Below are positions 19,522-51,873 of a stretch of DNA of 64,000 nt, piece by piece. Each line of letters starts with the position of its first letter. Position 1 is the first letter of the stretch. Both the position numbers and the translations under genes were made by a program. The notes below the pieces were generated by a model that made no database searches, had not been told where the DNA came from, and saw only the letters and a program-made list of their open reading frames with translations. The stretch is from Minisyncoccota bacterium. GTDB taxonomy: Bacteria; Patescibacteriota; Minisyncoccia; Phycocordibacterales; JACRKE01. The stretch lies in assembly GCA_041660505.1 (NCBI GenBank), contig JBAZWG010000002.1, positions 868-64,867 of the forward strand, written 5' to 3'.

Positions 19522-20139
19522 ATGTCAGAATCAGTACAAAAACTTACCGAGTTATTTAGCAAGTTTCCGGGTATCGGCCCGAGACAAGCTCGGCGCTTTG
19601 TCTATCACCTGCTTGAAGAGACAGAGTCTTCACGAGGTTTTCTCGCTCAAAAAATCCTGTCGCTAAAAAGCGAGATGATGCGGTGTTCAAAATGTAAAAG
19701 ATTCTTTAGCGTCGGTGATGCTCCTCATCAGAATCTTTGCCCGTTATGCGCAGACACGGCTCGCGACAGTTCCCTACTCATGGTCGTAGCCCGCGATGTA
19801 GACCTCGAAAGTGTCGAGAAAACAAAACAATATAGCGGTAACTATTTCGTTCTGGGTGGCCAGCTTAAAATCTTAGACAAAAATCCTGAATCCAGAATCA
19901 GAATCATTGAGCTCGAGGCACTACTGCACAAGTCTCCCGATATAAAAGAAATAATAATAGCAATGAACGCCAATACCGAAGGCGATTATACTGCCGACTA
20001 TGTGCGCCAAAAGCTGACGGAGTCCTTCCCCACCCGCGATCTCAAGATTACCGTCCTAGGCCGCGGTCTTTCGACAGGCACGGAATTAGAATATTCTGAT
20101 TCTGAAACGATTACCTACGCACTTAAAAACCGCTTCTAG
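19522..20139 (+). CDS. recR: recombination protein RecR
   Basis: LTELFSKFPGIGPRQARRFVYHLL (HhH), a C4 zinc finger (CSKC...CPLC), and a Toprim domain; 205 aa. Confidence 0.9.
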   Translation: MSESVQKLTELFSKFPGIGPRQARRFVYHLLEETESSRGFLAQKILSLKSEMMRCSKCKRFFSVGDAPHQNLCPLCADTARDSSLLMVVARDVDLESVEKTKQYSGNYFVLGGQLKILDKNPESRIRIIELEALLHKSPDIKEIIIAMNANTEGDYTADYVRQKLTESFPTRDLKITVLGRGLSTGTELEYSDSETITYALKNRF

Positions 20140-20504: not shown

Positions 20505-20576
20505 TGACCCTACAGGGAATCGAACCCTGATTACCGCCTTGAGAAGGCGATGTCCTAACCGTTAGACGATAGGGCC
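20505..20576 (-). tRNA. tRNA-Glu, anticodon CUC
   Basis: 72-nt cloverleaf read on the minus strand: GGCCCUA|UC|GUCU-AACGGUUA-GGAC|A|UCGCC-UUCUCAA-GGCGG|UAAU|CAGGG-UUCGAUU-CCCUG|UAGGGUC|A. 7-bp acceptor stem, GTTCGATTCC T-loop, U33, anticodon CTC. Close to E. coli tRNA-Glu. No encoded CCA. Confidence 0.8.
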
Positions 20577-31036: not shown

Positions 31037-31894
31037 TTAAGACTTTTTGTCAAAAAATTTGTTATCTCTTTTATTCTTAAGGTCAAGGTAATTTGATCTT
31101 GTTGAGACCTTTTGTCCAGTCTTGGCTTCGACAGCTCGACGAGCGACACCCGCAACCGAACCACCTTCTTTTGCATCTTTTTGTAGGGCTGGCAGTTCGC
31201 GAGAATCTTTGTTGCGAGAAATTTGAGTTGTTGTTGCTTCACCAAGCATCGTTAAAATAAGCTCGAGCTCGTTCATGTGGTCGCGTGGATTGTCTGGACT
31301 GTTCAAGCTCTTAAACTCTTTAATTTCTTTTGCTGTCATTTCGAATGCGCCCTGATATATCTCGTTAGTCAATATCGCAAAGTCAATCCCCTCCCTTGCA
31401 CCACGATCTTTCCACTCATCTGTTAGCGTATTCCGGATATTAATACCACGCATTCGTTTGGCGACCCAATCTTCTGAATAGCCTTTCCTGTCGTATATCT
31501 GTTTTGCTCTAACTATTGCCCGTTCCGGGTCTTGGATTTCCTCTATGCGCTCCTGACCGACCTTTGCAAGCCAGAGCTTGAAAGGCTCGGCTTTTGGGGA
31601 CGGTATGGATTGGATTATTCTAAACATACCCTGAAGATTTGTGCTGTCTGTCTCATATAACTTACCGTCTGCTGATGGTAATTTCAGTTGTACGATTTTT
31701 TCGTACAACTCGGAATATCCTTCTGAAATAAGCTTAATTTTAAGATCGCTCCAATATCGCCTCGGGTTTTGGCTCTCTGAAAGAATGCCTACGATATCAA
31801 TTATAGAGAAATACCACTGCTCATTATGCCATGTTCTGCGAACTTCCTTCTCTTCGAAAACAGCTGATTGTTTTACTTTTATGTCTTTTTTCAT
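31037..31894 (-). CDS. DinD-like protein (N-terminal Bro-N domain; DNA-damage-inducible protein D family), paralog 1
   Basis: Bro-N-like N-terminus (FEEKEVRRTWHNEQWYFSIIDIVGIL). The rest is collinear with E. coli DinD (LTDEW..GAREGIDFAILTNEIY..., ELELILTMLGE). Paralog of 59828..60586. Confidence 0.65.
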   Translation of the reverse strand: MKKDIKVKQSAVFEEKEVRRTWHNEQWYFSIIDIVGILSESQNPRRYWSDLKIKLISEGYSELYEKIVQLKLPSADGKLYETDSTNLQGMFRIIQSIPSPKAEPFKLWLAKVGQERIEEIQDPERAIVRAKQIYDRKGYSEDWVAKRMRGINIRNTLTDEWKDRGAREGIDFAILTNEIYQGAFEMTAKEIKEFKSLNSPDNPRDHMNELELILTMLGEATTTQISRNKDSRELPALQKDAKEGGSVAGVARRAVEAKTGQKVSTRSNYLDLKNKRDNKFFDKKS

Positions 31895-31900
31895 GCGATT

Positions 31901-32992
31901 TTAGAATAGCTTTACAATGTCGTGTACGGTTACGATTGCCATCAGTATTATGAGGATTGCGAAGCCTGCGGAATGGACCTTTTGAGTGAATTCCGGTTTT
32001 ATCGGCGAACCTTTAATTTTCTCTATTATAATGAATAGTATTCGGCCACCGTCCAAGGCCGGAATAGGTAGAATATTAAGAACTGCCAGATTAATGGAGA
32101 GCAACGCCATGAATGCCAGTATATAAGAGAAGCCAATGCCCGAGGCCATGCCGACCATCTTGAATATCCCAACCGGCCCACTGACCTGTCCGACCGTTGA
32201 TTCTTTTGCGAATATTCCTGTGGCGAAATAGTACAAACCTGTTATTGTTTCTTGCGCCAAGCGAACTGTCATGAGACCGCTCTCTCTTATCGCCGACATT
32301 GGAGGCAGATACGCCTCACCCATAATGGCAAAAGCGATACCTATTTTATATGTCTTGCCGTCTTCGGATTGCGGGGTAACAGTTACGAGTTCCGGCGCGG
32401 ATTTACCTGCGTGTTTGATATTGAGAATTATCGGCTTGCCGACGCTTTTCGCCACCAAATCGGAAATATCAACAGACCCGAGTACCGTATCTCCGCTCGA
32501 CAATCCGGCACGCGATGCCGGCGAATCATTTGCTACATAGTCTATTATTATCTGTCTATTGCGCAAATATTCCGGATTTATCGTACCTTCTACGGGTAAG
32601 AGAAGGCCTGTCTGGAGGCTTACGAATAACAAAAGCAACGCGAGCAATATATTCCCGATTACGCCAGCCGCGAGAATGATTATTTTTTTGTATGTCTGCT
32701 GGGTGCTGAAGCTGCGTGTTGAAAATTCGGAGGTCGGACCTCCGAAAGTCGTCGGAGGTCCGACCTCCGAATTTTCACCTTCTTCTCCCAATATTCTGAC
32801 GAATCCGCCGAGAGGCAACCAATTCAGCGAATAAAATGTTTCGCCGTATTGTTTGCCGAAAATTTTTGGCGGGAAGCCGAGCCCAAACTCATCGACTTGC
32901 ACACCGAAGAGCTTCGCGGCAATGAAGTGGCCGAACTCATGAGAAATAATAAGCGTCACGAGGACGATAATGAAGAGTATGGCTGTAAACAT
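31901..32992 (-). CDS. rseP: RIP zinc metalloprotease RseP (site-2 protease, M50 family)
   Basis: HEFGHF zinc motif in TM1, PDZ region, LPIPALDGG motif. It carries an in-frame palindromic repeat insertion (see repeat feature 32722..32775). Confidence 0.85.
   Translation of the reverse strand: MFTAILFIIVLVTLIISHEFGHFIAAKLFGVQVDEFGLGFPPKIFGKQYGETFYSLNWLPLGGFVRILGEEGENSEVGPPTTFGGPTSEFSTRSFSTQQTYKKIIILAAGVIGNILLALLLLFVSLQTGLLLPVEGTINPEYLRNRQIIIDYVANDSPASRAGLSSGDTVLGSVDISDLVAKSVGKPIILNIKHAGKSAPELVTVTPQSEDGKTYKIGIAFAIMGEAYLPPMSAIRESGLMTVRLAQETITGLYYFATGIFAKESTVGQVSGPVGIFKMVGMASGIGFSYILAFMALLSINLAVLNILPIPALDGGRILFIIIEKIKGSPIKPEFTQKVHSAGFAILIILMAIVTVHDIVKLF
32722..32775. repeat. tandem pair of 21-bp perfect palindromes flanked by AAAA/TTTT, lying in frame inside rseP
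   Basis: ttcggaggtc-g-gacctccgaa at 32726-32746 and gtcggaggtc-c-gacctccgaa at 32751-32771. Together they form a ~56-bp super-palindrome. They encode ...ENSEVGPPTTFGGPTSEFS... in a loop that is ~13 aa longer than in E. coli RseP. Confidence 0.7.
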
Positions 32993-32995
32993 GTT

Positions 32996-33547
32996 TTATA
33001 ACTCGATCTCCTTGCGTTTGCGTTCGTGGAGCTGTTCCAATTTGGCAACTGTGTCGTCTACCATTTTCTGCAGTTCGTCTTTATATCTGAACTTTTCATC
33101 TTCTGTGACTGTGCCTTCTTTTTCTTGCTTTTGAATATCATTCCAGATTTTCTCGCGCTCGGCGCGCAGAGAAATCTTAGCTTCCTCGAGTTTCTCCCCC
33201 GCCAGCTTCATAAGCAATTTCCGGCGATCTACCGTGAGCTCGGGGAAAATAACTCTGATAGACTTGTTGTCAGGGCTGGTTGAGACGCCGAGATTAGCGG
33301 AAGCAATACCGGTCTCGATAGCCTTCACGAGCGACGCATCCCAGGGTGTAATGCGTAAAGTCTTGGGATCCTCAACGGCAATAGCCGCCACGTTCGATAC
33401 CGGCATTTTGGAGCCATAAGAGTCTACCAGCACACTATCCAAGAGCGCCGGCGTCGCCCTACCCGTGCGGATAGAGCCGTGCTCGTTCACAAGCCAGTCT
33501 TCTACCCCCTTTGCCCCTATTTTAAAACCCGCAAAATTATAAGCCAT
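32996..33547 (-). CDS. frr: ribosome recycling factor
   Basis: 183 aa; typical RRF three-helix bundle plus beta domain (KMPVSNVAAIAVEDPKTLRITPWD...). Confidence 0.9.
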   Translation of the reverse strand: MAYNFAGFKIGAKGVEDWLVNEHGSIRTGRATPALLDSVLVDSYGSKMPVSNVAAIAVEDPKTLRITPWDASLVKAIETGIASANLGVSTSPDNKSIRVIFPELTVDRRKLLMKLAGEKLEEAKISLRAEREKIWNDIQKQEKEGTVTEDEKFRYKDELQKMVDDTVAKLEQLHERKRKEIEL

Positions 33548-33592
33548 AATTTAAGTTGAAAGTTATAAAGTTACAAAGTTGAAAGTAATACG

Positions 33593-33603
33593 ATTATATC
33601 ACA
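33593..33603 (-). promoter_or_regulatory. extended -10 promoter TGTGATATAAT for frr, overlapping the holB stop
   Basis: Minus-strand TGtGATATAAT is the same 11-mer as upstream of the 13581 gene. It is followed by a ~40-nt leader rich in CTTTCAACTT repeats. Confidence 0.4.
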
Positions 33604-34255
33604 CAGCTTGCCCGCCGACGAGGCGGGGCAGATGTAAGGCCAAACTCTCAAGAATAAGTTTAATGGCCGGCGCCGTGTCGTGTATATATTGCTTGCTCTT
33701 TTCGAGCAGTTCGAAGGCTGTTTTGTCTTTTTTCGCCAGTTCCGGGTTCTTTGCATAATATATTTCTAAAGCAGACAATATTGCACCGGCATCGTATTTA
33801 GTCCGCGCGTGCACTTCATCACTCTCATCGCGCACGTCAAAGAATGTCTTTTCTAGATATTTCAACCGTTCGATCGGCGTTTTCCTCAGAAACTTTTCTG
33901 CGTCGAAAACTTCTTCACTTGGAAGCTTAGCTTCCAAGTCTTCTAAAATATGTAATCTTGAGCGGAGGGTTGGTAATAAGTCATCCGGATACGGCGTAAT
34001 GATAACAAACTTAGTTCCGGGCATTGGCTCTTCTAGTGTCTTGAGTAGAGCATTCTGCGCCTCTCGTCCGAAGCCGTACGCGCCGATACTGAATGTCTGT
34101 ACATCCCCGTCTGCCACTGCCAAGCTTGCCCTGCGGTGCAATTCATGTGCGTCGGCGATATCAAATGTTACGTAAACTTCATCAGCAGAGACGGGCTCGC
34201 CTTGTATCAAGAATGCATGGTGAGTTGAAAGTTGAAAGTTGAAAGGGGTTCGCAT
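33599..34255 (-). CDS. holB: DNA polymerase III delta' subunit-like (AAA+ clamp-loader subunit without a P-loop)
   Basis: HHAFLIQGE (degenerate Walker A region, as in delta') and ALLKTLEEPMPGTKFVIITPYPDDLLPTLRSRLHI (sensor-1 / SRC-like motif). 218 aa. Codons 5-11 (FNFQLST) are encoded by an (AGTTGAA)3 heptamer repeat. Confidence 0.65.
   Translation of the reverse strand: MRTPFNFQLSTHHAFLIQGEPVSADEVYVTFDIADAHELHRRASLAVADGDVQTFSIGAYGFGREAQNALLKTLEEPMPGTKFVIITPYPDDLLPTLRSRLHILEDLEAKLPSEEVFDAEKFLRKTPIERLKYLEKTFFDVRDESDEVHARTKYDAGAILSALEIYYAKNPELAKKDKTAFELLEKSKQYIHDTAPAIKLILESLALHLPRLVGGQAV
34222..34244. repeat. (AGTTGAA)3 tandem heptamer repeat immediately downstream of the holB start codon
   Basis: gagttgaaagttgaaagttgaaagg. 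It is related to (AGTTGGG)4 at the fmt 5' end and to AAGTTGAAAG motifs at 33551-33590 and 48301-48360. Confidence 0.7.
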
Positions 34256-34260
34256 TTTAC

Positions 34261-34289
34261 TTTATACTTTAAAACTTTGTAACTTTCAA
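34261..34289 (-). promoter_or_regulatory. sigma70-type promoter for holB (TTGAAA-17-TATAAA); TSS predicted at or next to the ATG (leaderless)
   Basis: Minus strand: TTGAAA, then a 17-nt spacer, then TATAAAGT ending 6 nt before ATG 34255. Built from AAAGTTN heptad repeats. Confidence 0.5.
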
Positions 34290-34293
34290 CTAT

Positions 34294-35319
34294 TTATCGC
34301 TTGCTTATAATACTGCGTTTATATGTATCAAGATGCTCGAGGGCGACACCAGTGCCTTTAGCCACACAAAAGAGTGCTTCGTCGGCAAGCTGAGCTTTGA
34401 CCCCCGTCTTGCGATAGACCAATTCCGGCAGATTGCGAAGCTGGGAGCTCCCGCCGGTCATGATTATGCCTTTATCAATAATATCAGAGGCGAGCTCCGG
34501 CGGTGTCTCTTGCAAAACATCTTTAATCGCCTTGACCATCTGACGAAGCTCGTTGTCAATCGCCTTCACAATCTCATTCGTCGCCATCTCGGCACTGCGC
34601 GGGAGACCGGTCAAGAAATCTCGACCCTTAATAATAGTGCGCAATTCGCTCTCCATCGGTACTGCAGAACCGATCTTCACCTTAATTTCTTCTGCGGTCT
34701 TGTCGCCTATCGCCAGATTAAACGTGCGTTTGATATATTCCGTAATAGCGACATCCATTTTATTACCGGCACACTTGACGGATGTAGAGGCCACGATACT
34801 GCCAAGGGATATCACCGCTACGTCTGTCGTACCGCCGCCGATGTCGACGACCATGTACCCGCATGGCTCATGAATCGGGATGCCGGCGCCAATCGCCGCG
34901 AGTATCGGCTCCTTGACCACGTAAGCACTGCGCGCACCAGCCTTGATGGCTGCCTCGATGACAGCCCGGCGCTCGGTCGAGGTAATACCGGCAGGTACGG
35001 ATATCATAACGTCGGGCTTAAAAAAGTTCCACTTGCCAAGAGCCTTCTGGATATAATACCGTAACATCGCCTCGGTCACGCGATAGTCGGCGATGACGCC
35101 GTCCTGCATCGGTTTGTAGACAAGTATACCGTCCGGCGCCTTGCCCACCATCTCTTTGGCCGCCGCGCCGACGGCCAAGACTTTATTATCTATCTCCGAA
35201 ACAGCCACAACTGAAGGCTCGTTTAGAACAATCCCCCGCCCAGGTACGAAGACGAGCGTGTTGGCGGTACCCAGATCAATACCAAGCTTGCGAGTAAATC
35301 GAGGGAATTCAAACTTCAT
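34294..35319 (-). CDS. mreB: MreB/Mbl actin-like protein, second paralog
   Basis: Start set at MKFEFPRFTRKLGIDLGTANTLVFV (ATG 35319). TGcTATAGT sits 6 nt upstream on the minus strand. Full MreB motif set. The ORF-track N-terminal extension runs into the RAYT element and is rejected. Confidence 0.85.
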   Translation of the reverse strand: MKFEFPRFTRKLGIDLGTANTLVFVPGRGIVLNEPSVVAVSEIDNKVLAVGAAAKEMVGKAPDGILVYKPMQDGVIADYRVTEAMLRYYIQKALGKWNFFKPDVMISVPAGITSTERRAVIEAAIKAGARSAYVVKEPILAAIGAGIPIHEPCGYMVVDIGGGTTDVAVISLGSIVASTSVKCAGNKMDVAITEYIKRTFNLAIGDKTAEEIKVKIGSAVPMESELRTIIKGRDFLTGLPRSAEMATNEIVKAIDNELRQMVKAIKDVLQETPPELASDIIDKGIIMTGGSSQLRNLPELVYRKTGVKAQLADEALFCVAKGTGVALEHLDTYKRSIISKR

Positions 35320-35381
35320 TACCCTACTATAGCAAACACTTTTTACTGTCCAAAGCTTAGCTTTGATAATTTCGATATGTG

Positions 35382-35390
35382 TGGTATAAT
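35382..35390 (+). promoter_or_regulatory. extended -10 TGgTATAAT, 6 nt upstream of the RAYT ATG (leaderless)
   Basis: gtggtataat-ttaaca-ATG. Confidence 0.45.
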
Positions 35391-35396
35391 TTAACA

Positions 35397-36077
35397 ATGC
35401 GAATTATTGAATTTTGTGCGAATGAATATTACCACGTCTTTAACAGAGGCAATAATAAACAAGTAATCTTTCGCGATGATAGCGACCGTTTCCGATTCCT
35501 GTTCGCACTGCTTTTTTTTCAGGCTCCAATCAGCTATGACCAGATTGGCAGATATATAGTGTTTTTAAAAAGGCACAGGACGGACATTAGCCAGAATGAT
35601 TCATTAAAGGATTTAGCGGAGCACGTACTGGGCAAACGCTCTATAGAATTAATCAATTTTTGTCTTATGCCAAACCATTTCCACCTTGCCGTTAAGCCAA
35701 TGAAGGATAATGCAGTGTCGCTATATTTACATAAAGTATTAACTTCGTATACAAAATATTGGAATAAAAAATATAAGGCGACGGGACACCTGTTCGAAGG
35801 ATCATTCAAAGCTGTCCGTGTTGCTGATAATGACCAGTTTTTATATCTATCGACCTATATACACAGAAACCCCGCTGAATTATCGACGTGGATTGGTCGC
35901 GAGCATGAATATCCGTGGTCGAGTCTGCAAGACTACCTTGGTGTTAATCGTTGGGGAAAACTGCTTGCGACCGAAAATATTTTAGAGCAATTTGACTCGA
36001 TTGAGGAATATCGGGCTTATGTTAACGATAGCACAGCAAAAACCGGCGATGACGACATCGAGTTTGTCCAAAGCTAA
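35397..36077 (+). CDS. REP-associated tyrosine transposase (RAYT), HUH/Y1 family
   Basis: YHVFNRGNN...IF.DD.DR.RFL.LL, HUH motif LMPNHFHL, GHLFEGSFK, catalytic-Tyr region YIHRNPAELS, and the C-terminal YPWSS motif. Start at ATG 35397 (ORF-track GTG 35379 rejected). Confidence 0.7.
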   Translation: MRIIEFCANEYYHVFNRGNNKQVIFRDDSDRFRFLFALLFFQAPISYDQIGRYIVFLKRHRTDISQNDSLKDLAEHVLGKRSIELINFCLMPNHFHLAVKPMKDNAVSLYLHKVLTSYTKYWNKKYKATGHLFEGSFKAVRVADNDQFLYLSTYIHRNPAELSTWIGREHEYPWSSLQDYLGVNRWGKLLATENILEQFDSIEEYRAYVNDSTAKTGDDDIEFVQS

Positions 36078-36094
36078 GCTTTGGACATTGGACC

Positions 36095-38326
36095 CTACTT
36101 CCCGTACATATATAATGAGTAAATCTCATTGGCCGACAACTCGCGGTTATAAATACGCACGTCATCGATTCCGCCCTTCCACGGTTCAGCCGGCGCGCCA
36201 TAATCACCAATATACATATTTACTCCGCCATCGTTATATACTCCGCCAAGATTCTTGTTATCGCTACCCACAAGTCTACCATCTATATATAAATACTGTG
36301 CGGAGTTTGTTTTTACACAGACCATATGATGCCATTTACCGTCCTTATACACATTGCTTACTGCCGGGGACGCAATGGTCGCTGCAACTCTTAGACTGCA
36401 ATACATTTGAGTACCGCCACTATCCCCCATCAATACTGCACTACCAGCAGAGTATTTTCCCAGAATAAAATAAGCGGTGGCGCCAGGGACTTGCCCTCTA
36501 TTGAACCAAGCGGAATATGTCCAACTATTCGCATTGGTTGGCCCGAAGTTGTTGCCCAGATTTACAGTATTATTAGCGCCATTCTTTGGGAAATACAACC
36601 CTTGTCCAATTTTCCCTGCAATAATACTTGTCCCTGTCACTGTCCCATTTTTCCCATTTCCACTTTTGTCTAACATTACACCGGTAGTCCTGTCCACAGC
36701 ATCAAACGTCCACCAGCCGACGAGACCATTTGTGGTGCTTTGAGCCGAGACTAGCGCTGGACTGGCTGTGACCTTCGCGCCACCGAGTGTATATAATGAG
36801 TAAACTTCATTGGCCGACAAGGCGCGGTCGTAGACACGCATGTCGTCGGCTTGCCCTGAAAAAATACCGTCTGACTCGGCGTTACCAAATACTCCAAAAT
36901 AGTAAACACTGTTTGTTATATTAGGGGTTACCGTGGTCGGAGTACCGGATATCGCCTGTAGTACACCATTCACATATATCTGCGTGGTTGTATTTGCCGC
37001 GCCGGGAGATTTAACAATGGTCACTAAATACCATTTATTTGCCGTTAATGCACCTGCGGCTGTTGCGACAGAATTGCCGGAAGCGTATTCGACCGAAACA
37101 GCCCCTGCTCCGCGCAAATTAAAGAAGGTGCCTATAGCCGCACCAGCACCACCGTTACGATCACCCGTAAAAAGACCTGCGCCGGATGTTGTTGTATCTC
37201 TCAATTTCACCCACTGCGATAAGGTTATAGACGCATTACCAGAGATGCCAGAATTATTAGCACCAAGTAGATAACATTTCTGCCCATTTGTGGTCGCTGT
37301 TGGCGTAAGCGATATTCCTCGACTTATCTTCGCGGTTACAAATTGCGGCGTGCAATTCGTCCCGCTCTGTGTTGTAAACATATGACCATTACCAGTCTTA
37401 TCTATTGTATAAGTACTCCCTGAATCTGGGGTATCGAAAGTCCACCAGCCGACAAGGCCATTCGTGGTACTCTGCGCGGAAACTTTCGTCGGGCTTGCCG
37501 TAATCTTACTTGTACCGAGCTGGTACAGAGCTTTAATCTCGCTCGCAGACAATGCACGACTATAAATGCGCACGTCGTCGATAGAGCCGTTAAAGTTATA
37601 TCCTCGTGCGTTAACTCCGCCTGGTCCCCATGGGCCGTCTGCAGCAATATCCAATTCTCCATCCGGCGCATTTTGCGAACCGGTTATCGTTGTCGGGGTC
37701 TGGGCAATTCCGTCGATGTATAAGGTTATTGTTGTACCGTTTATTGTTTCGACCGCATGATGCCATTGATTATCTCCATAGGCACCGGCGCTCGTAGAAA
37801 AAAAGTCTGTACCGTTATAGTACTCCGCAGATACTGTATTATTCGTATTCATCAATAGACCCCAAAGATAGCGGTTGGGAGCATTATTAAGCGTATCTTT
37901 TCGGAGAATCGACATTTCACCTGCCGCATTCCCGCTCGTTTTAAACCAAGCCGAAATCGTAAGCGTAGAACCCAGCCGCAGGCTTGCGCTATCGGGCACG
38001 GCGACGTATTGCGATGCACTAATTGCGCTCCATGAAGCATTAGACGACAGAGCTTGGCCGATCTTGCCCTGCACTTTACTCATGCTTGTTAATGTCCCAT
38101 GATTTGCATATAAGCTTTTATCCCTCACTTGCGAACCTGTTACGTATCCTGAATCAAACGTCCACCAGCCAACAAGGCCATTCGTCGTGCCCATCGCGCC
38201 CAGAGCCTGCGCGCTCGAAACTGCAGACGCCTCTGCCTTGCCGGCCAAAAATAGCGCAGGCAACAAAAGCAAGAGCGCGAGGAACCTAGTTAAAAGTTTA
38301 ATGCTTACGAGTGTCACAATTTTCAA
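36095..38326 (-). CDS. secreted protein with four LamG-like (concanavalin A-like lectin/glucanase, Laminin_G_3-type) domains
   Basis: Signal peptide. Four repeats of TNGLVGWWTFD ... DDVRIY(S/D/N)RALSA(S/N)EI..LY. 743 aa. Starts 18 bp downstream of the giant gene stop, so likely the same operon. Confidence 0.8.
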   Translation of the reverse strand: MKIVTLVSIKLLTRFLALLLLLPALFLAGKAEASAVSSAQALGAMGTTNGLVGWWTFDSGYVTGSQVRDKSLYANHGTLTSMSKVQGKIGQALSSNASWSAISASQYVAVPDSASLRLGSTLTISAWFKTSGNAAGEMSILRKDTLNNAPNRYLWGLLMNTNNTVSAEYYNGTDFFSTSAGAYGDNQWHHAVETINGTTITLYIDGIAQTPTTITGSQNAPDGELDIAADGPWGPGGVNARGYNFNGSIDDVRIYSRALSASEIKALYQLGTSKITASPTKVSAQSTTNGLVGWWTFDTPDSGSTYTIDKTGNGHMFTTQSGTNCTPQFVTAKISRGISLTPTATTNGQKCYLLGANNSGISGNASITLSQWVKLRDTTTSGAGLFTGDRNGGAGAAIGTFFNLRGAGAVSVEYASGNSVATAAGALTANKWYLVTIVKSPGAANTTTQIYVNGVLQAISGTPTTVTPNITNSVYYFGVFGNAESDGIFSGQADDMRVYDRALSANEVYSLYTLGGAKVTASPALVSAQSTTNGLVGWWTFDAVDRTTGVMLDKSGNGKNGTVTGTSIIAGKIGQGLYFPKNGANNTVNLGNNFGPTNANSWTYSAWFNRGQVPGATAYFILGKYSAGSAVLMGDSGGTQMYCSLRVAATIASPAVSNVYKDGKWHHMVCVKTNSAQYLYIDGRLVGSDNKNLGGVYNDGGVNMYIGDYGAPAEPWKGGIDDVRIYNRELSANEIYSLYMYGK

Positions 38327-38344
38327 TTTCTAACTTACAATTAT

Positions 38345-41300
38345 TTACGGCGTCGTACTCGTCGCATTTGGGTCTATTACGTTAACTATTCTTATCTGTT
38401 CGATGGCATTATTACCTGAATTATCTACTGCGTTATATTTAACCTCATGTGTACCGGCTAATGTTGTGTCTATCTGATCGCCTGTCGTGACTATGCCGAG
38501 ATTATGATCTACGTTGTCTGTAACTGTTGCGCCCATGTCGCTGTAACTCGAGCCCATGTTTATTGTAGATGGGTTGAGGCCGAGCATTGTGATGACCGGA
38601 GCCTCTGTGTCTGCTGGCGGGGTCGAAGTACCAGCAGGCGCCCCGGCTGGGGCAGTTCCTGCCACGCACTCCCCTGCTACGCTGGCGACGAGGCCACTTG
38701 ACACCTTCAAACAATACGGATTGCCTGTCGTGTCGTCATATAATGTGACACCTATCGGGTTTACTGACGAGCCAACCTTCATACTCTTTAACACGTTTAA
38801 GTCTTGTACCACCAATCTGCCGTTCTCGTCCAAGCTCCAGTTGCCCGAGGCAGAAGCCAGACTCTTTATATTGACTATTGCTTGCCCTTGCAGGTCGAGT
38901 ACGCGCGCTGTTGCGAGCTTCATATAACCCGTACTTTGATCTACTACCCAGTCTGAACTCACGGCGCCGTCTGCAATACCCGAAGAAATATTCTGATAAC
39001 CAAGATTGACGAAGACAGTAATACTGCCTGTCTGTGAATAAGAGCCGTCGGGTAGAGTGCCGCTCCAAGGCTCAAGGGCGATACCAACAGTCTGGCCGGA
39101 GGTCGTCGCCTTCATACCGATACCTGCCGCCGATGAAAGCGTGATGTAGTCACCAACCGCAATATCCCCTCCTTCAAGGTTAACTTTAGTCGGCACGCGA
39201 CCAGAGAGAGCCACGGGACGCGAAGTACTCGCCGTAAACTCCGAACTTGCACCACCGAGCAGAACACCGGGGTCAGTAGATATGATTCCTATTACCGGTA
39301 TGATAGTAGAACTTGCCTTTCTCACAACAAGAGTCGAGGTAGAAGTATCCAACGATACTAAGTCACCCGCCGAGATAGTCTCGTCCGTTATTTTGTAACT
39401 CTCTGCCAGGTCCACGGTTTGCGTCGAAGCTCCTCGAGAATAAATCTGTCCTGCCGGTACAGAACTACATGCTACCGTAGCGGAACTCGTTGACACGCAA
39501 AGACCGGAACCAGTCCCTGTTCCGTAAACTTCGAGCTTCGCCCCTGGCGTCGTCGTCCCGATACCGACGTTGCCCCCCTGTGCCTGAAAAGCGATATTCT
39601 GATTATATCCCGTGTTCTGCTGTATTCCTTGAAATTCAAAGACATTTGAGGCATTGGACATTGTAACCTGTAGTTGCTTTTGTGTTGTCCCCTGCTGATT
39701 TCCAAACTCCATAAGTTTAACGCGGTCTGTTGCAGTCTCGCTTACTGGAGAGATAACTCCATTCACGCTTAGCTTGTAGTTAGGTGTGGTTGTCCCGATG
39801 CCTACGTTGCCCGCGTTTGTTATTGACAACTTCTCCGAGCCTTGTACCGCTAACCCCATGGTTGCTCCTGTACCTCTTGCGTCTAAGAACGCTTTACCAG
39901 CATTACTCGTGTATATAGACAGACCAGTAGCGGCAGCAGCGGAGAAGGTGTTGTTGCCAATTACCAATCCATAAGGGCTATCATCATCTCCTGTTATTTT
40001 TAGCAGTTGTGTTGCGGCTGTCCCACCATCAAGAATTTCAAGTTTTGCCGAAGGACTCGTCGTCCCGATGCCGACGTTGCCATTCTGTTGTATTCTCATC
40101 TTCTCAGCATTAGCTGGTGAGAATGAGATATAGTTTCCAGTACCAGCAGAGTAGTTGGTTTGGAAATCAAGTGAATTATCACCAGCGTCATTGAAGGTTA
40201 TTTTGGCATACTGTCCCGCTACTCCTGCGCCCAAGTTATCCAAAACGATTTGCGGATTGCCGCGAGTCCCCTCGTGAATTGAAAGTTTAGCCCACGGAGT
40301 TGTGGTTGCAATTCCGACATTACCATTCGTATCTATCATCACTTGGTCAGTATTTGAATAGGAGTCTGACCCTTTTCCAAAAAACATTGTCCCATTACTA
40401 CTCTGTATGTAGCGATGATGCAAACCAGATACGGCATCGGTATCAGAAAGATAAAACATTGGGGCGATATTGGCGATATTTAACAAATATGCTGGCGTCG
40501 TCGTCCCGATACCGACGTTGCCGTTTCGGAGCACTGTGAACGATGTCGTTGTTGCCGTTAATGTTGAGCTGGCCACCGTGAATATCGGCTGGGTGCCGTC
40601 AACATTGCTGTCGCTTGTGTTGGCGGAGACAGAGAGTTTGGCCCATGGGGTTGTGGTGCCGATACCGACTAGCCCGCCGGAGGTGATACGCATGGCTTCG
40701 GTCATTGCGGTGCTATTGTTGGTACTGAAAGCTAAGTAGCCAAGTTGATTGTTTGTTGTAGAGTTTTCTTTAAACCCAACGATGCTGGCGAAATTTCTGA
40801 TCGATGAGGGGATTAATGGTACATCGTCTTTATAACCACCGAAGGCGATAGAGCCACCGGTATCTACAGCTTGGGAATTATTCGATCGTATCAATAATTG
40901 TCCCGTAGCGGTACGCGTCGGGACGGTGCTCGAGCCATAGATATCAAGCAGAGCTAGCGGCGTCGTCGTGCCGATGCCGACATAGCCACTGCGGAGGATT
41001 GTAAATAATGAATTGGTGGCGCTGGCGGTAGAGCTCGCAACGACAAAGAGCGGGGTGGCCATGTTGGCAGAGGAGTCGGTCGTATTGCCTTGTATCGAGA
41101 GTTTAGCAAATGGTGAGGTAGTGCCGATGCCGACAAAACCATTAGTGGTGAATTGGCCTGTGCTTGTGGTGGTGGCGTTGCCGTTCACGGTCAAAACAGA
41201 TGTTGATGTTGTGCCTGTTGTAGTGAGGTTGGCGTTGGTGCCAGAGGAACCAATGAGAACGCCACCGGCAAAGTTGGCGGCGACGCCGTTCGGGTTGGTA

Positions 41301-47300: not shown

Positions 47301-47833
47301 CCGGCATCGACAGCGGCGCCATGCGAAGCGTTGGCGTAGATGAGGGCTGTGAGTTTGTTGTCGAGCTGGTTCAGCTTGGTAGCCAAGTCACTTGATGTAA
47401 CACCGGAACTTGTTTGTTGGTAAATGATTGTTGGTTTGGTTGTTGTAACGGTTCTCGCGGGCGCACTGCCGATGACAGAAATCTTGCCCGCCAAACTATT
47501 GACTTGATCACGTAATGCTTGTATATCGCTGTTTACAGTTGTAGTTGACAGAGTATCAGATATCGTGGCAATGTCGGTGACTTTTTGACTGATAACAGGG
47601 GTGGTAACTGTGACTGTCGGAGAGGGCTTTTGGACCTGCGGAGAGAAGAAGGAGATGAGCGACGTTTGAACGCTATTGAATATGTCCCCTATCGTACTGC
47701 TGATGCTTGCCATATATTGGCTAGGTAGAGCCGTATATTCATTGACGAGGGAGGCGTGAGCTAGCGAAAAATTTGCAATAAAAAAGACGGTTAAAACCGC
47801 AAAGTAAACTACAAATTTTCGCACCGAATGCAT
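38345..47833 (-). CDS. giant secreted multidomain surface protein (3162 aa). It has tail-fibre-like GIGT repeats, a Kelch-type beta-propeller, a discoidin (F5/8 type C) domain, a Gly-rich domain, a tail-fibre-like C-terminal module and an Ig-like (DUF5011-type) domain.
   Basis: Signal peptide [27 protein letters not shown]. About 20 copies of G(N/L)VGIGT(T/S)(S/T)PxAKLxV. About 6 YVYAIGG Kelch blades (aa ~715-1060, nt ~44650-45690). Discoidin-like [31 protein letters not shown]...YRYYKL (aa ~1290-1415). Gly-rich [14 protein letters not shown]... (aa ~1955-2175, nt ~41320-41960). [19 protein letters not shown] module (aa ~2808-2990). C-terminal Ig-like [31 protein letters not shown] (nt ~38380-38610). 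No C-terminal TM or sortase signal. Confidence 0.85.
   Translation of the reverse strand: [3162 protein letters not shown]
42300..46000. repeat. three to four near-identical ~250-300 bp direct repeats inside the giant gene
   Basis: Copies around 45860-46000, 44160-44350, 43140-43330, and a partial copy at 42300-42480. They encode (G/M)LLD(L/M)[46 protein letters not shown]. They are potential recombination or size-variation substrates. Confidence 0.7.
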
Positions 47834-47928: not shown

Positions 47929-47986
47929 GGTTGACATTTTTATTCGGTTGGTACTTTTCTGGCCGAAAATAGGGTACAATCACCTC

Positions 47987-49669
47987 ATGCAGGTCATCAC
48001 ACTTATCCCCATCGTCCGTGGTATCGGCAAAGACGAGCTTACCTACTTCTCTACCCTGCCTGTCAAGGTCGGCGACATTGCCACTGTCACCATCAACTCG
48101 CGCGAAGTGCGCGGGATAGTCACGGACGTACTCGACGCGAGAACGGCAAAGAATTCTGTGAAGCGCGGAGACTTCGCGCTAAAGAAGGTTCTGAAGATCG
48201 AGCCGGGATTTATTGCACCATCTGTCATTTCTGTAGCAAAAGAAACTTCTGATTATTTCGCTTGTTCAGTGAGTCAGGTTCTCGGCTCGATGTACCCCAA
48301 AAACGTACTAAACGAAGTTGAAAGTAAAAAGTTGCCGTGCCTGCCGGCAGGCAGGAAAGTTGAAAGGAATCACCCCTCTCCTTCGGGGAGGGGCCGGGGT
48401 GGGGTTGCAATCGAAGGAACCCGGCAAGATCGTTTTGTTTGGATTCAAAAAAACTTAATCAAGAGGAATATGAAAGTCTTATATATTTCACCATCGAATC
48501 ATGAACTAGCAAAAGCTAAAAAAGTTTTCAATGATACTGAAATTATTTGCGTATCGCCGGAATATGGCTTTGTATGGCTACCTTATGTCGATACGATAAT
48601 TTTAGATAACGAAAGTGGCGCTGGCTATCATGATAATTCACGGGCACAAATAGATTTTAAAAAAGTGTACGAATTTCATGCGCTGGAAAATAAACAGCAA
48701 ATAATTTTCGCTGATAACGTGCTTGATCTCAAATATTTCGCAAATCCAAAAAGTGGCCAACATCGGGTGTTGACCACTTTTCCAAAAGTTATGGTGGTAA
48801 AAAAGGAAAAAACTGCTCTGCATAATTCTTGGCTCGTGAGTAAAGAAGCAGTGGGATTGACGGAAAAAATACTTGCAAAAAATTCTAGAATGTTCTTCTT
48901 CGCTCCACGTAAAAGTATCGCGAGTATCACCGTATGTGGTGATTGCGGCGAAACCGTGCAGTGTGAGACTTGCAAACGGCCACTTATGCTCGCACGCAAG
49001 AATGGTAAACGAATATTCATCTGCCAAAAATGCTCTCAAATCACGCAAGTAGATATATCATGTGCAAGCTGTAATAGCTGGAAGTTGAGACCCCTGGGTG
49101 TGACAGTTGACTCTGTCGCTGATGAGCTGGAGCGATTATTTCCCAAGGCGACCGTCTTGCGAGTGTCGGGCGACATCACAAAGACCAAGACCCAACTTGC
49201 AAAAATCATCAAACAATTTTATGCCACATCCGGCGCGCTGCTCGTCGGCACCGAGCTTGCGCTCCCCTATCTCGAACAGCTAATTTCTTATTCTGTAATC
49301 TCCAGTATCGATTCGTTTTTATCAGGCAGAAGTTTGTCAGGTACGGACAAAGCCGCGCGAATTATCTTTGAGGTTGCAACCCTTGCCCATGAAAAAGTTT
49401 TAGTAGAAACAAGCGACCCACACCAGCAATTTTTTCAAGATATTTCTGATGGCGGAGGTTTAACCTCCGCTATGCTAAAAACATATCGCGAACATGAACT
49501 TGCAGAAAGAAAAAAGTTTAACTATCCGCCATACAGTATTATCATAAAAATAAATTCAGAAATATTTTTTATAAATAAAGAGAAGTGGCCGGACGCAGAA
49601 CTCGTCGCGAGAATTCGCGCGTTGCCAAAGGGCTCAACCTACACCATAGACGCAAACAGTGTCGTGTAG
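47987..49669 (+). CDS. primosomal protein N' (PriA)-like, with degenerate helicase ATPase motifs
   Basis: Start set at ATG 47987 (TACAAT 6 nt upstream; ORF-track TTG 47948 rejected). N-terminal 3'-DNA-binding domain. PriA Cys-rich zinc-binding region CGDCGETVQCETCKRPL...CQKCSQ...CASCNS is collinear with the E. coli PriA CHDCG..CPRCD..CHHCD..CPSCG region. Walker A GxTGSGKT is absent (YISPSNHELAKAK instead), and DEEH is replaced by DNES (IILDNESGAGY). It carries an in-frame REP-like element at 48301-48360. Confidence 0.6.
   Translation: MQVITLIPIVRGIGKDELTYFSTLPVKVGDIATVTINSREVRGIVTDVLDARTAKNSVKRGDFALKKVLKIEPGFIAPSVISVAKETSDYFACSVSQVLGSMYPKNVLNEVESKKLPCLPAGRKVERNHPSPSGRGRGGVAIEGTRQDRFVWIQKNLIKRNMKVLYISPSNHELAKAKKVFNDTEIICVSPEYGFVWLPYVDTIILDNESGAGYHDNSRAQIDFKKVYEFHALENKQQIIFADNVLDLKYFANPKSGQHRVLTTFPKVMVVKKEKTALHNSWLVSKEAVGLTEKILAKNSRMFFFAPRKSIASITVCGDCGETVQCETCKRPLMLARKNGKRIFICQKCSQITQVDISCASCNSWKLRPLGVTVDSVADELERLFPKATVLRVSGDITKTKTQLAKIIKQFYATSGALLVGTELALPYLEQLISYSVISSIDSFLSGRSLSGTDKAARIIFEVATLAHEKVLVETSDPHQQFFQDISDGGGLTSAMLKTYREHELAERKKFNYPPYSIIIKINSEIFFINKEKWPDAELVARIRALPKGSTYTIDANSVV
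48301..48360 (+). repeat. REP/MITE-like element in frame inside the priA-like gene. It is AAGTTGAAAG-flanked, with a 14-bp perfect palindrome gcctgccggcaggc.
   Basis: gaagttgaaagtaaaaagttgccgtgcctgccggcaggcaggaaagttgaaagg encodes ...NEVESKKLPCLPAGRKVERN.... A second GC hairpin (cccctctcc-ttcg-gggagggg-like) follows at 48372-48395. It is near-identical to the minus-strand copy at 51549-51583. Confidence 0.7.
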
Positions 49670-49678
49670 TATAGTAGG

Positions 49679-50254
49679 GTGATGAAAGTGATGTTGGATG
49701 GCGCACCGGTACTGCGCGAAAAAGCAAGAGAAGTACCTGTACCGGATATCAAAAAAGGCTTATATAAAGCCATGGTTGCAGACATGCAGGCTACGCTCCT
49801 GAAGTGCCACGATGGGGTAGCCTTGGCCGCCCCGCAGGTCGGCAAGAGCATCAGATTATTCGTAATATCGCCAAAAGTATTTCAAGCCGAACAGGAGTTA
49901 GGAGATGGGAGATCGGAGTTAGGGAAATCCAAAACCGTATCCCCCAAACTCCAAACTCCTAACTCCCAACTCCCACGCCTCGTCTACTTCAACCCTAAAA
50001 TAAAAAAAGTTTCTGCCAGTAAAAAAGATCTCGATGAAGGCTGCCTCTCGGTGAACGGCCTCTATGGCAAAGTCCCGCGCAGTACAAAGGCGCTGATTGA
50101 AGCCTACGACGAATACGGTATGAAGTTTACGCGCGGAGCATCGGGCCTGCTCGCGCAAATCTTCCAACATGAAGTCGATCATCTTGATGGCATTCTCTAT
50201 ATCGACAAAGCATCGGAACTCAAGCAATTAGAAAGTAGGAAAACAGATGCTTAA
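49679..50254 (+). CDS. def: peptide deformylase, carrying an ~28-aa repeat-encoded insertion
   Basis: GVALAAPQVG, EGCLSV and QHEVDHLDG motifs are intact. The segment ELGDGRSELGKSKTVSPKLQTPNSQLPR lies between the conserved VIS and LVYFNP blocks, where E. coli Def has only ~8 residues. Confidence 0.9.
   Translation: MMKVMLDGAPVLREKAREVPVPDIKKGLYKAMVADMQATLLKCHDGVALAAPQVGKSIRLFVISPKVFQAEQELGDGRSELGKSKTVSPKLQTPNSQLPRLVYFNPKIKKVSASKKDLDEGCLSVNGLYGKVPRSTKALIEAYDEYGMKFTRGASGLLAQIFQHEVDHLDGILYIDKASELKQLESRKTDA
49911..49987. repeat. imperfect hairpin element built from GGAGTTN / AACTCCN heptamers, in frame inside def
   Basis: Left arm gggagatcggagttaggg, a ~20-nt loop, right arm ccaaactccaaactcctaactcccaactccc. 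Confidence 0.65.
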
Positions 50255-51164
50255 TTCGAATGGAAGTTGGGAGTTGGGAGTTGGGAGTTGGGGAAAATAC
50301 AACTTCGTATTTTTTGGTACTTCTAACTTCGCCGTCATAGTTTTAGACGAGCTCAAGGCCGGCGGCTATCTACCGAGTTTAATTATTACAGTGCCTGATT
50401 CCCCGCAGGGCAGAAAGCAGATAATTACTCCTTCACCGGTTAAACTCTGGGCAATTGAACATAATATCCCTATCGAACAACCCGAGAAACTCCTAACTCC
50501 CAACTCCCAACTCCTAACTCCTAACCGTGACTTCGGCATTGTCGTTGATTACGGCAAAATCATTCCGCAGAAAATTATAGATATCCCGAAACACGGACTT
50601 CTGAACGTACACGTGTCTCTTTTGCCAAAATTTCGCGGGGCTTCGCCAATGCAAACAGCAATACTTGAAGGCGAAGCAGAGACCGGCGTAACTATAATGC
50701 AAGTGGTAAAGGGGCTCGATGAAGGCGATATAATTGCACAAGAAAAATTTGATTTGGCTAACTGGCACCCGTATTTTCTTGAACTTGCAGACAAAACCGC
50801 ACATGCCGGCGGTAAATTGCTTGTAAAAATTCTGCCGGATTATCTCGCCGGCAAAATTACACCAATTAAACAAGATAATTCTAAGGCAACTTTTACGCGA
50901 AAATTCGAGGTGCAAGACGGTTTTATAAAACCTGAAATCGTGCTGGGCACAGAGACTGGAGAATTGGCGCAAAAAGCAGAAAGAAAAGTCCGTGCCCTGA
51001 ATCCAGAACCCGGCACCTGGACCGAGTTAAAAATAAGAAATACGGCTCTACGTATAAAGATTCTGAAGGCGCACTTAGAAGTAGATAAATTTATACCCGA
51101 CACTGTAATACCCGCCGGCAAGAAAGAGATGTCGTGGCAAGACTTCAAAAACGGGAATCTGTAA
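50247..51164 (+). CDS. fmt: methionyl-tRNA formyltransferase
   Basis: Start ATG 50247 overlaps the def stop (ATGCTTAA). VFFGTSNFAV, HVSLLPKFRGASPMQ, and a C-terminal domain. The N-terminal 13-aa extension SNGSWELGVGSWG is encoded by (AGTTGGG)4. LLTPNSQLLTPN is encoded by (AACTCCN)5. Confidence 0.9.
   Translation: MLNSNGSWELGVGSWGKYNFVFFGTSNFAVIVLDELKAGGYLPSLIITVPDSPQGRKQIITPSPVKLWAIEHNIPIEQPEKLLTPNSQLLTPNRDFGIVVDYGKIIPQKIIDIPKHGLLNVHVSLLPKFRGASPMQTAILEGEAETGVTIMQVVKGLDEGDIIAQEKFDLANWHPYFLELADKTAHAGGKLLVKILPDYLAGKITPIKQDNSKATFTRKFEVQDGFIKPEIVLGTETGELAQKAERKVRALNPEPGTWTELKIRNTALRIKILKAHLEVDKFIPDTVIPAGKKEMSWQDFKNGNL
50254..50286. repeat. (AGTTGGG)4 tandem heptamer repeat at the fmt 5' coding end
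   Basis: gaagttgggagttgggagttgggagttgggg. Confidence 0.75.
50491..50529. repeat. (AACTCCN)5 tandem heptamer repeat inside fmt (reverse complement of the 50254 repeat family)
   Basis: aactcctaactcccaactcccaactcctaactcctaacc. Confidence 0.75.
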
Positions 51165-51548: not shown

Positions 51549-51600
51549 GTTATTTAATAAACTTTCCTGCCTGCCGACAGGCATGGCAACTTTATACTTT
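51549..51600 (-). repeat. REP-like element copy in the hpf leader / promoter region. It has a TATAAAGT -10-like box, the gcctgtcggcaggc palindrome, and (AAAAGTT)2.
   Basis: Minus strand reads gttaaaagttaaaagtataaagttgccatgcctgtcggcaggcaggaaagttta. About 90% identical to 48311-48352. Confidence 0.65.
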
Positions 51601-51606
51601 TAACTT

Positions 51607-51873
51607 TTAACTATTCTGAACACCTCCAGAGCCGCGCATACGTATGCTCGCCGTATCGAAGATACTGAAGAGCTTCGAGGGTGATGTGTGGCCGGAGATA
51701 AGGCGCACAAGCTTCTCCTCTACGCCTAATGTTCTTGCCAAGAGCTCTGTAACTTTCTTATTAGCGAGATTGCGCTCGGCCTTCTCGCGCACCCACATCT
51801 CATACTTGTCAGAAGACACCTTTGTTACACGATCAGCCTTGGCGCCCGGCGTAACCTTAACGTGGATATACAT
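51607..51873 (-). CDS. DUF167 / YggU-family protein
   Basis: 88 aa; MYIHVKVTPGAKADRVTKV...LGV...GHTSPSKL matches the YggU (UPF0235) pattern. Confidence 0.55.
   Translation of the reverse strand: MYIHVKVTPGAKADRVTKVSSDKYEMWVREKAERNLANKKVTELLARTLGVEEKLVRLISGHTSPSKLFSIFDTASIRMRGSGGVQNS

Follow-up and report, generated by a model that had tools for sequence, protein, structure and literature searches.

What are the short heptanucleotide repeats that surround the gene for DNA polymerase III delta', holB, in a 64-kb window from a metagenome-assembled genome of Candidatus Paceibacterota (candidate phyla radiation (CPR)/Patescibacteria), and do they serve the genes next to them? The window is the whole stretch of DNA that was analysed, and it is the portion of the genome examined for this focal organism, which is from groundwater and has a tiny genome. 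An earlier note on this DNA had proposed promoters, a shared regulatory or binding site near start codons, or a dispersed mini-element that carries a promoter. The arrays are one repeat family with a shared core. It is about an even call whether they represent a lineage-specific family of heptanucleotide direct-repeat arrays, and this is the reading favored here.

Arrays are present at seven sites: the frr leader, the 5' end of holB, priA, def, fmt (two sites), and the hpf leader. The AGTT/AACT core is observed at all seven. AGTT is fixed, whereas the remaining three (sometimes four) bases change by locus, and the units include AGTTGAA, AGTTAAA, AGTTAYAA, AGTTGGG, AGTTAGG, and AGTTTGG. An array consists of three to five units of 7 nt (sometimes 8 nt) and is about 25-38 nt in total; Tandem Repeats Finder (TRF) reported 3.3-5.4 copies per array at six loci. 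The window has six runs of at least three AGTT cores spaced by 7 or 8 nt, and dinucleotide shuffles give 0.025. AAAGTTNAAAGTT is found eight times with at most one mismatch, against 0.66 expected. Seven is the sole over-represented period, with four period-7 tandem arrays and none of periods 3-6 and 8-13. Exact matches to AAGTTGAAAG number six, two each in the frr leader (33553 and 33576), the 5' coding end of holB (34229 and 34236), and priA (48315 and 48357). All sequences quoted in the earlier note were found where it had placed them. Two features of the heptad-array class, tandem 7-nt units in sets of about two to six and a related unit at many separate loci of one genome, are both present within these 64 kb. 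The arrays inside open reading frames (ORFs), in holB, priA, def, and fmt, are all translated in frame.

The seven sites are grouped in two blocks, frr-holB and priA-def-fmt-hpf, and the remaining ~50 kb of the window contains no array of the AGTT heptad family. The two blocks are contiguous in the relative L001, and such clustering points to local spread. A weak and degenerate heptad run, AATCCTG AATCCAG AATCAG AATC, is observed inside recR (19882-19905). It has the AATC core seen in units of L007 and L008, and could be either a decayed array or a chance match.

The repeat blocks on the two sides of holB, described earlier as inverted relatives, are true inverted copies. The frr-leader array and the holB-upstream array are identical at ~31 of 37 positions, and the 8-nt AGTTAYAA units are included in both. 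On the sense strand of frr, the leader array reads CTTTCAACTT...AACTT, and its end is 6 nt from the frr ATG (33547). The two exact matches in this leader correspond to CTTTCAACTT twice on the frr sense strand, in agreement with the earlier observation of two motifs there. The (AGTTGAA)3 array that had been assigned to the first seven codons of holB exists, but it occupies codons 5-11, not 2-8. Its sense strand, TTC AAC TTT CAA CTT TCA ACT, encodes FNFQLST, and the N-terminus of HolB is MRTPFNFQLST. The first ~10 codons of holB are replaced by the array, with the length kept relative to that in relatives. At the 3' end of holB (33607-33630), a GC hairpin, GCCCGCCGACGAGGCGGGGC, encodes the C-terminal tail HLPRLVGGQAV; it may be a captured terminator-like hairpin. 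Similar HolB tails (RLGGGQAV etc.) are observed in several relatives, and not in L132 or P0123.

The nearest available relatives for the holB region are L132, whose HolB is 73% identical, and L133/L134 (71%). No heptads are present at mreB-holB or holB-frr of L132 and L133. In these two, the mreB stop and the holB start are separated by a 2-nt gap or overlap, and the holB-frr spacer is 19-23 nt. Therefore, the 38-nt spacer, the array-coded N-terminus of HolB, and the 33-nt array of the frr leader are focal gains in the window lineage. L132 shows a gain of its own. The genes mraZ and rsmH overlap in the window and in L133, and L132 has ~69 nt between them, in which (AGTTTCG)5 is followed by (AAACTAA)4, ending directly before a new ATG. 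Each of the two arms is internally uniform, and their spacers differ (AGTTTCG vs AGTTTTA).

Heptads in the hpf leader (51588-51612), inside priA, and, as the AGTTGGG variant, at the fmt start were confirmed. The def palindromic pair and the second fmt array are sites beyond the earlier list. The def palindrome has the degenerate arm GGAGTTA GGAGATG GGAGATC GGAGTTA GGG and the arm CCAAACT CCAAACT CCTAACT CCCAACT CCC, and it lies within a ~25-aa segment that L007, L008, and L001 do not have. The priA array is interrupted by a 21-nt GC hairpin, CCGTGCCTGCCGGCAGGCAGG (48335-48355), with AAAGTTG on either side, and is translated in frame as EVESKKLPCLPAGRKVE, residues ~123-141 of PriA. The priA and hpf-leader elements are homologous, with a common 21-nt GC hairpin, CCRTGCCTGYCGGCAGGCAGG, nested between AAAGTTG units. 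The two copies of this hairpin differ at 2 positions and are flanked by AAAGTTG/AAAGTTG or AAAGTTT. The hpf-leader copy has a terminator-like score on both strands. At the priA site of L011, the array is uninterrupted (AGTCGAG AGTTAAA AGTCGAA AGTTGAA) and has no hairpin. The A-rich consensus AGTYRAA is seen across genera, as AGTTGAA in the window, AGTCGAA in L011, and AGTCAAA in L007. A second GC-rich hairpin in priA, CACCCCTCTCCTTCGGGGAGGGGCCGGGGTGGGG (48375-48408), encodes RNHPSPSGRGRGG, a 13-aa insertion missing from the L011 PriA.

Two sites at fmt are filled repeatedly. The def-fmt junction carries arrays in six lineages including the window, as palindromic A/T-rich pairs in L007 and L008 and as single arrays in L136, L003, and L138. 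They lie upstream of the fmt ATG in L007 (0 nt), L008 (-8), L136 (-4), L003 (-7), and L138 (-31). In the window, the junction array is absorbed into the fmt ORF, and Fmt begins with the array-encoded peptide. The second site, at Fmt residues ~73-94, is occupied in seven lineages by different units: AACTCCY in the window, GCAACTG in L001, CCAGTTC/CCAATTC in L007, CCTACTA in L008, AAGTATC in L135, TAATTCG in L136, and AACTTAC in L138. Peptides with a 7-residue period are found at this site in at least 8 of 120 Fmt homologues, and others are found near residues 150-168 or at the N-terminus. The stretch is hypervariable across Paceibacterota, and it is a recurrent permissive site, as is the junction. 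As at the N-terminus of HolB, the fmt array at residues 82-93 is a replacement of similar length, not an addition.

Table 1. Positions of the heptad arrays and of the genes around them in the window.
Feature	Coordinates	Strand	Composition or setting	Detection
frr-leader array	33551..33590	+	AGTTGAA-AGTTATAA-AGTTACAA-AGTTGAA-AGT	exact search, TRF
(AGTTGAA)3.3 array	34222..34245	+	3' arm of holB palindrome	TRF
holB-upstream array	34256..34293	-	AGTTGAA-AGTTACAA-AGTTTTAA-AGTATAA-AGTAAA, then ATG	sequence reading
priA-internal array	48315..48370	+	AGTTGAA AGTAAAA AGTTG ... AAAGTTGAAAGG; split by GC hairpin	
def-internal palindrome	49894..49975	+	AGTT-type arm, loop, AACT-type arm	
(AGTTGGG)4.6 array	50261..50292	+	Fmt N-terminal extension MLNSNGSWELGVGSWGK; matches def-fmt junction arrays of relatives	
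(AACTCCY)5.4 array on fmt sense strand	50485..50525	-	encodes LLTPNSQLLTPN (Fmt residues 82-93; array at about 81-94)	
hpf-leader element	51560..51614	-	AGTTAAA AGTTAAA AGTATAA AGTTG, hairpin CCATGCCTGTCGGCAGGCAGG (51566-51586), AAAGTTT	
frr	32996-33547	minus		
holB-like gene (DNA polymerase III delta')	33599-34255	minus		
mreB	34294-35322	minus		
priA, def, fmt	47948-51164	plus		
hpf and DUF167 gene		minus	after fmt	

The census of the clade includes 30 arrays in 230 kb of clade sequence. Thirteen of them are outside ORFs, against 11% at random (p=1e-5, 3.8-fold), and 17 are inside ORFs. A start codon is at most 30 nt away in seven of the 30, compared with 9% at random (p=0.02). The enrichment near starts that was anticipated for the motif is thus present in the clade sequence but modest, and it is mostly due to the preference for non-ORF space. 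An intergenic position, proximity to starts, and rarity of Shine-Dalgarno (SD) motifs, as in the heptad-array class, are all observed, with this modest effect at start codons. The arm nearest the ATG is of the AACT type for frr, L007, L011, and L132 and of the AGTT type for holB, hpf, and L136, although the cases are few. All seven inverted arrangements in the clade have the AGTT-type (A-rich) arm on the 5' side and the AACT-type (T-rich) arm on the 3' side of the gene sense strand; in one of them, in fmt, the arms are ~190 nt apart.

The favored reading can be described as a series of events. New arrays would be gained at a site, often as inverted pairs, leading to imperfect palindromes. They would probably be copied from nearby arrays by template switching, and each arm may then be homogenized and resized by slipped-strand replication. 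The arrays are located at operon junctions, at the 5' ends of genes, and in segments that encode loops or linkers, and they would persist only where the compact genome tolerates them. Local sequence is rewritten by them, as seen in the replacement of the first ~10 codons of holB, the N-terminal extension of fmt, and the lengthened frr leader. The A/T-rich variant carries TTGAAA and TATAAA, and an inserted array of this type could supply a promoter or an unstructured leader. Any regulatory effect would then be a by-product, not the reason for the existence of the family. This reading is supported by the specificity of period 7 with a shared core, the inverted duplication, the presence and absence of arrays among relatives, the filling of the same sites with different units, the arms that evolve apart, the clustering in two blocks, the distribution over ORFs and non-ORF space, and the presence of the same class of arrays in other organisms.

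Several observations weigh against it. Slippage alone leaves the constant AGTT core with varying other three bases unexplained, and the persistence of AGTYRAA across genera looks like a constraint on the motif itself. Neutral insertions should lack the bias in arm orientation seen in seven of seven inverted arrangements. That two fmt sites carry arrays in deeply diverged lineages could instead reflect function. No variation in array length is found among L008, L009, and L010, which are 99.9% identical, and rapid slippage is therefore not demonstrated. There is no pair of empty and filled sites among relatives close enough to define the ends of an insertion. The conserved core and the fixed arm orientation keep a protein-binding or regulatory role alive, with a minor but real chance.

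The start-codon architecture of the window is relevant to the main reading of the earlier note, in which AAAGTTN arrays act as sigma-70-type promoters or UP-like elements, with holB, frr, and other genes transcribed from them as leaderless mRNAs. SD-like motifs precede only 6 of 53 genes in the window. Between 0 and 10 nt upstream of start codons, 38 TANNNT hexamers are found where ~9 are expected; they peak at a gap of 6 nt, with 9 observed vs 0.85. This SD-free, leaderless-type architecture suggests that leaderless or near-leaderless transcription is widespread in this Paceibacterota genome. The holB site, TTGAAA (34289-34284), a 17-nt spacer, and TATAAA (34266-34261), agrees with the sigma-70 hexamers and spacing and with the window-wide placement of the -10 box. 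It had been reported to end 6 nt before the ATG, but the distance is 5 nt (GTAAA, then ATG at 34255). As SD sites are rare and -10 boxes lie 0-10 nt before starts, the predicted holB promoter and a leaderless holB transcript are plausible. Promoter-like sites in 32900-35500 also exceed those of shuffles (9 vs 3.4), in a scan that accepts only T as the sixth base of the -10 hexamer and thus omits the holB site. However, the holB palindrome has promoter-like hexamers on both strands, and the site is not conserved at the orthologous loci of L132 and L133, in which holB starts right next to the mreB stop or overlaps it; holB coupled to mreB without a spacer needs no promoter of its own. The best -10 box of frr, TATAAT, lies over the holB stop codon, outside the array, and L133 has a counterpart, TATACT, in the same place, indicating that the array was inserted into the frr leader. 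No canonical -35/-10 hexamers are present in the arrays upstream of starts in L007, L008, L011, and L132. The arrays inside def, fmt, and priA and the G-rich variants (AGTTGGG and AACTCCY) cannot be promoters, arrays occur in both orientations, and the two arrays flanking holB are missing from the nearest relatives. As a general account, promoters are therefore improbable, and the earlier interpretation is supported only in part; the arrays are not primarily promoters, and the holB promoter, if real, would be a by-product of a recent insertion. The alternative of a dispersed mini-element is close to the best reading as far as one family with a shared core is concerned, but the carriage of a promoter does not define the family.

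Another possibility is that the arrays are cis-acting sites at which a protein recognizes a short core with a 7-nt phase, forming a global regulon in which the translation or transcription of the downstream gene is set. Candidate binders of RNA would be ribosomal protein S1, a cold-shock protein, CsrA, or a HutP/TRAP-like oligomer that reads NAG-N4, and those of DNA would be ribbon-helix-helix proteins such as omega of pSM19035. Omega binds heptad strings, direct or inverted. A conserved core with free spacers is the anatomy of phased protein-binding sites such as those of HutP, omega, and ParG. The AGTYRAA consensus and the arm orientation are consistent with such sites, as are the arrays abutting start codons in L007, L008, L132, L136, and L003, and some viral contigs repeat one 30-nt array upstream of several genes. 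For the TAACTGA repeats, in organisms that likewise make little use of SD motifs, the same role near start codons was proposed (PMC4679880), and the deletion of heptamer repeats in Nostoc changed reporter regulation (bioRxiv 10.1101/2022.06.06.494920). On the other hand, the focal arrays are missing from the nearest relatives, more than half of the clade arrays are in ORFs far from start codons, and the units at one site are wholly different between lineages. The sense strand has no folding advantage, and no candidate binding protein was identified, with no search for one made. Such binding sites appear unlikely. It is more doubtful still that AGT(T)-N3/4 arrays are read by an oligomeric nucleic-acid-binding protein, one core per 7 nt, that marks or tunes translation starts or operon junctions. 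If it were so, a reader at a 7-nt phase would be common to SD-poor bacteria (CPR, Bacteroidota, cyanobacteria, and Beggiatoaceae) and their phages, and ORF-internal arrays would be stranded or decaying copies. The arrays might also be targets or footprints of a tiny mobile hairpin, CCRTGCCTGYCGGCAGGCAGG, that inserts in AAAGTTG and duplicates 7 bp. Arrays would be built up as the hairpin repeatedly inserts and is excised, and the constant core would be a target preference; period 7, the constant core with local spacers, and the occasional 8-nt units would be accounted for. The two hairpin copies in arrays with AAAGTTG-type flanks and the hairpin-free priA array of L011 fit this idea. It is nevertheless very unlikely. 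Only two copies are seen, most arrays have no hairpin, there is no linked transposase, and the hairpins at the nearby Y1 gene are unrelated. A perfect AAAGTTG flank was found in the search for a 7-bp target-site duplication around the 21-nt hairpin, but it is uninformative because any insertion between two array units looks alike and has flanking direct repeats. Contingency loci, in which 7-base units switch genes on and off via slippage frameshifts, are hardly credible. The unit is not a multiple of 3 and arrays are located at the 5' ends of holB and fmt, but holB, fmt, def, and priA, in which the arrays lie, are essential housekeeping genes, all arrays are in frame, and the same arrays are found outside coding DNA and in either orientation. 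No length differences are seen among three assemblies of one species, L008, L009, and L010, whose lack of indels led to the rejection of phase variation, although they are consensus assemblies of a relative species.

Several other readings were rejected. The holB element (34256-34293 with 34222-34245) forms a hairpin, with the AUG placed in its loop, of -16.1 kcal/mol (z=-4.2), that of the def element has -37.2 kcal/mol (z=-5.8), and the hpf-leader element folds with -14.7 kcal/mol (z=-2.7). In each of the seven elements, folding of the antisense strand is equal to or better than that of the sense strand, and there is thus no sign of selection for an mRNA hairpin. Rfam covariance models match only a tRNA (20505-20576) in the window. 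At the 5' region of fmt, (AGTTGGG)4 and (AACTCCY)5 are complementary and could form a long-range stem in the window, but the pairing is not conserved in L007, L136, or L138. Four G-tracts, as needed for G-quadruplex heptamers, are present only at 50261-50292, and the A-rich arrays have none. A link to the Y1 transposase of the type known for repetitive extragenic palindromic (REP) sequences and their doublets (REPINs) was rejected, as the flanking hairpins, CCAAAGCTNAGCTTTGG, are unlike the heptads.

The Y1 transposase gene (IS200-like; Pfam Y1_Tnp, E=2.4e-10) is located at 35379-36077 (+), 1.1 kb from the holB arrays. It is bracketed by two CCAAAGCTNAGCTTTGG hairpins (35350-35366 and 36068-36084), which are found nowhere else in the window, and is provided with a strong promoter-like site, TTGATA-16-TG-TATAAT. 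At the equivalent position of L132, the gene is missing. It may represent an IS200/IS605 element or a domesticated gene similar to REP-associated tyrosine transposases (RAYTs). Together with a 743-aa ORF and a 3162-aa ORF, it lies in the ~12.5 kb (35379-47833) that separates mreB from priA; the two genes are adjacent in L001. Giant ORFs upstream of mreB are also observed in L132 and L133.

A perfect palindrome (32720-32777), 26+26 nt with a 6-nt loop, TGAAAATTCGGAGGTCGGACCTCCGA...TCGGAGGTCCGACCTCCGAATTTTCA, is located inside the rseP-like M50 protease gene (31901-32992, -). It folds with -51 kcal/mol (z=-9.9) and is translated in frame as ENSEVGPPTTFGGPTSEFS. At this site, L132 and L133 have degenerate remnants, EVRLPDS and GGGGPTSES. 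A related GGAGGT...ACCTCC palindrome inside the holB of L133 (10306-10353) encodes LEVEPPSGGSTS. These palindromes appear to form another family of hairpins inserted in frame in the clade. Paralogues with the Bro-N domain, which is typical of phage antirepressor-like proteins, are encoded at 31037-31894 (-) and 59828-60586 (-). The first of them lies between proS and rseP, and it is an insertion because proS and rseP are adjacent in L132 and L133.

The arrays show that a minimal genome tolerates such sequences inside the essential genes holB, priA, def, and fmt, with protein segments replaced or extended. The two fmt sites, filled with unrelated units in many lineages, can separate a permissive site with frequent gain from function. 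If the holB promoter is real, an insertion may have given an operon-internal gene its own leaderless promoter, which would be a route from junk repeats to regulation. For annotation, unusual inserted peptides of CPR proteins that repeat every 7 residues should be regarded as repeat-encoded.

The heptad-array class is widespread in metagenomes. A metagenome scan for five AGTT cores at a 7-nt phase detected at least 120 loci with a G+C content from 0.21 to 0.68; only one core was scanned, and the result is no measure of AGTT being special. On these contigs, chosen for one array, at least 104 further arrays of period 7 were found, against at least 18 of period 6. The further period-7 arrays typically have 4.3-4.6 copies and are often inverted pairs, and among the matches listed only 18 of the 104 have the AGTT core. 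No close relative of the window organism was among the matches listed. Exact (AGTTGAA)3 is present in 21 IMG/VR contigs, against ~0.03 expected (an estimate that assumes ~6e10 bases). Four phage-like IMG/VR contigs, L141, L147, L153, and L157, carry 10-19 different heptad arrays per 8-14 kb with ~4.3-4.9 copies each, many of them directly upstream of genes. The units of L141 are G-poor on the coding strand. In L147, an identical 30-nt array, AATTTTCAATTTTCAACTTTCAATTTTCAA, has three copies, two of them directly upstream of an ORF start. Such phage-like contigs with one array per gene would be good material for a search for binding factors.

Heptamer arrays have been noted since about 1990, and no report of them in CPR bacteria was found in the literature. 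In Nostoc, 21-27-nt small dispersed repeat (SDR) elements reportedly nest in heptamer arrays, an observation credited to Elhai in 2008; the 21-nt hairpin within the priA and hpf-leader arrays is a parallel to it. Rickettsia palindromic elements (RPEs) are dispersed 100-150-bp copies of one consensus. They resemble the window arrays in that small palindromic DNA is present in frame at permissive sites of conserved genes and adds peptide segments. The window arrays differ in being 25-90 bp, in being built of heptads with no two loci identical, and in replacing sequence of similar length at the N-terminus of HolB and at Fmt 82-93. REP/REPIN sequences, mobilized by the Y1 transposases of the RAYT group (PMC3116915), share with them the short inverted doublets at operon junctions and a Y1 gene nearby, but the window arrays have no REP-like conserved palindrome and the Y1-flanking hairpins are unrelated.

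Two described systems are more similar. Heptamers are over-represented among long simple-sequence repeats in bacteria, as far as Mrazek 2007 is cited in PMC4692102. Rehm 2015 (PMC4692102) characterized GGGAATC repeats in Xanthomonas and GGGGA(C/T)T repeats in Nostoc, in which four units are preferred, arrays are near ORF ends, inverted pairs are possible, and the same sites are filled between species with variable sequence. In a Nostoc preprint (bioRxiv 10.1101/2022.06.06.494920), (TTTTGAA)3-4 is located upstream of 21 genes, and repeat deletion affects reporters. The window arrays share with these short tandemly repeated repetitive (STRR)/Rehm-type sequences the heptamer-specific excess, ~4 units, the position within ~50 nt of ORF ends, the inverted pairs, and the same intergenic sites filled in related species with variable length and sequence. 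The Nostoc TTTTGAA/TTCAAAA unit is nearly equal to the TTGAAAG unit of the window. STRR/Rehm-type repeats are reported as rarer than expected in coding regions, unlike the window arrays, and the G-quadruplex proposed for the G-rich ones would find its four G-tracts only in the N-terminal array of fmt.

TAACTGA direct repeats were described in marine Beggiatoaceae, and also in Cyanobacteria and Bacteroidetes (MacGregor 2015; PMC4679880). Most sets aim at a start codon, ending ~1 nt upstream, where SD motifs are rare; a few sets are in ORFs at protein peripheries, and translational regulation via a binding protein was only proposed (PMC4679880). The window arrays are similar in the 7-nt unit, two to six tandem copies, related variants mixed in, the AACT core, many sets directly upstream of starts without SD motifs, and a minority in ORFs. 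They differ in that TAACTGA is one fixed heptamer, whereas the non-core bases vary by locus in the window (GAA, GGG, AGG, TGG, and AAA), and in that inverted pairs are common, with one reported for TAACTGA. More than half of the clade arrays are in ORFs, including those for internal loops of essential enzymes, and the host is a CPR bacterium. The closest described classes are the cyanobacterial STRR sequences and the Beggiatoaceae TAACTGA repeats, the latter with the shared AACT core. The occurrence in CPR adds to a class of heptanucleotide direct repeats already described in cyanobacteria, Beggiatoaceae, and Bacteroidetes.

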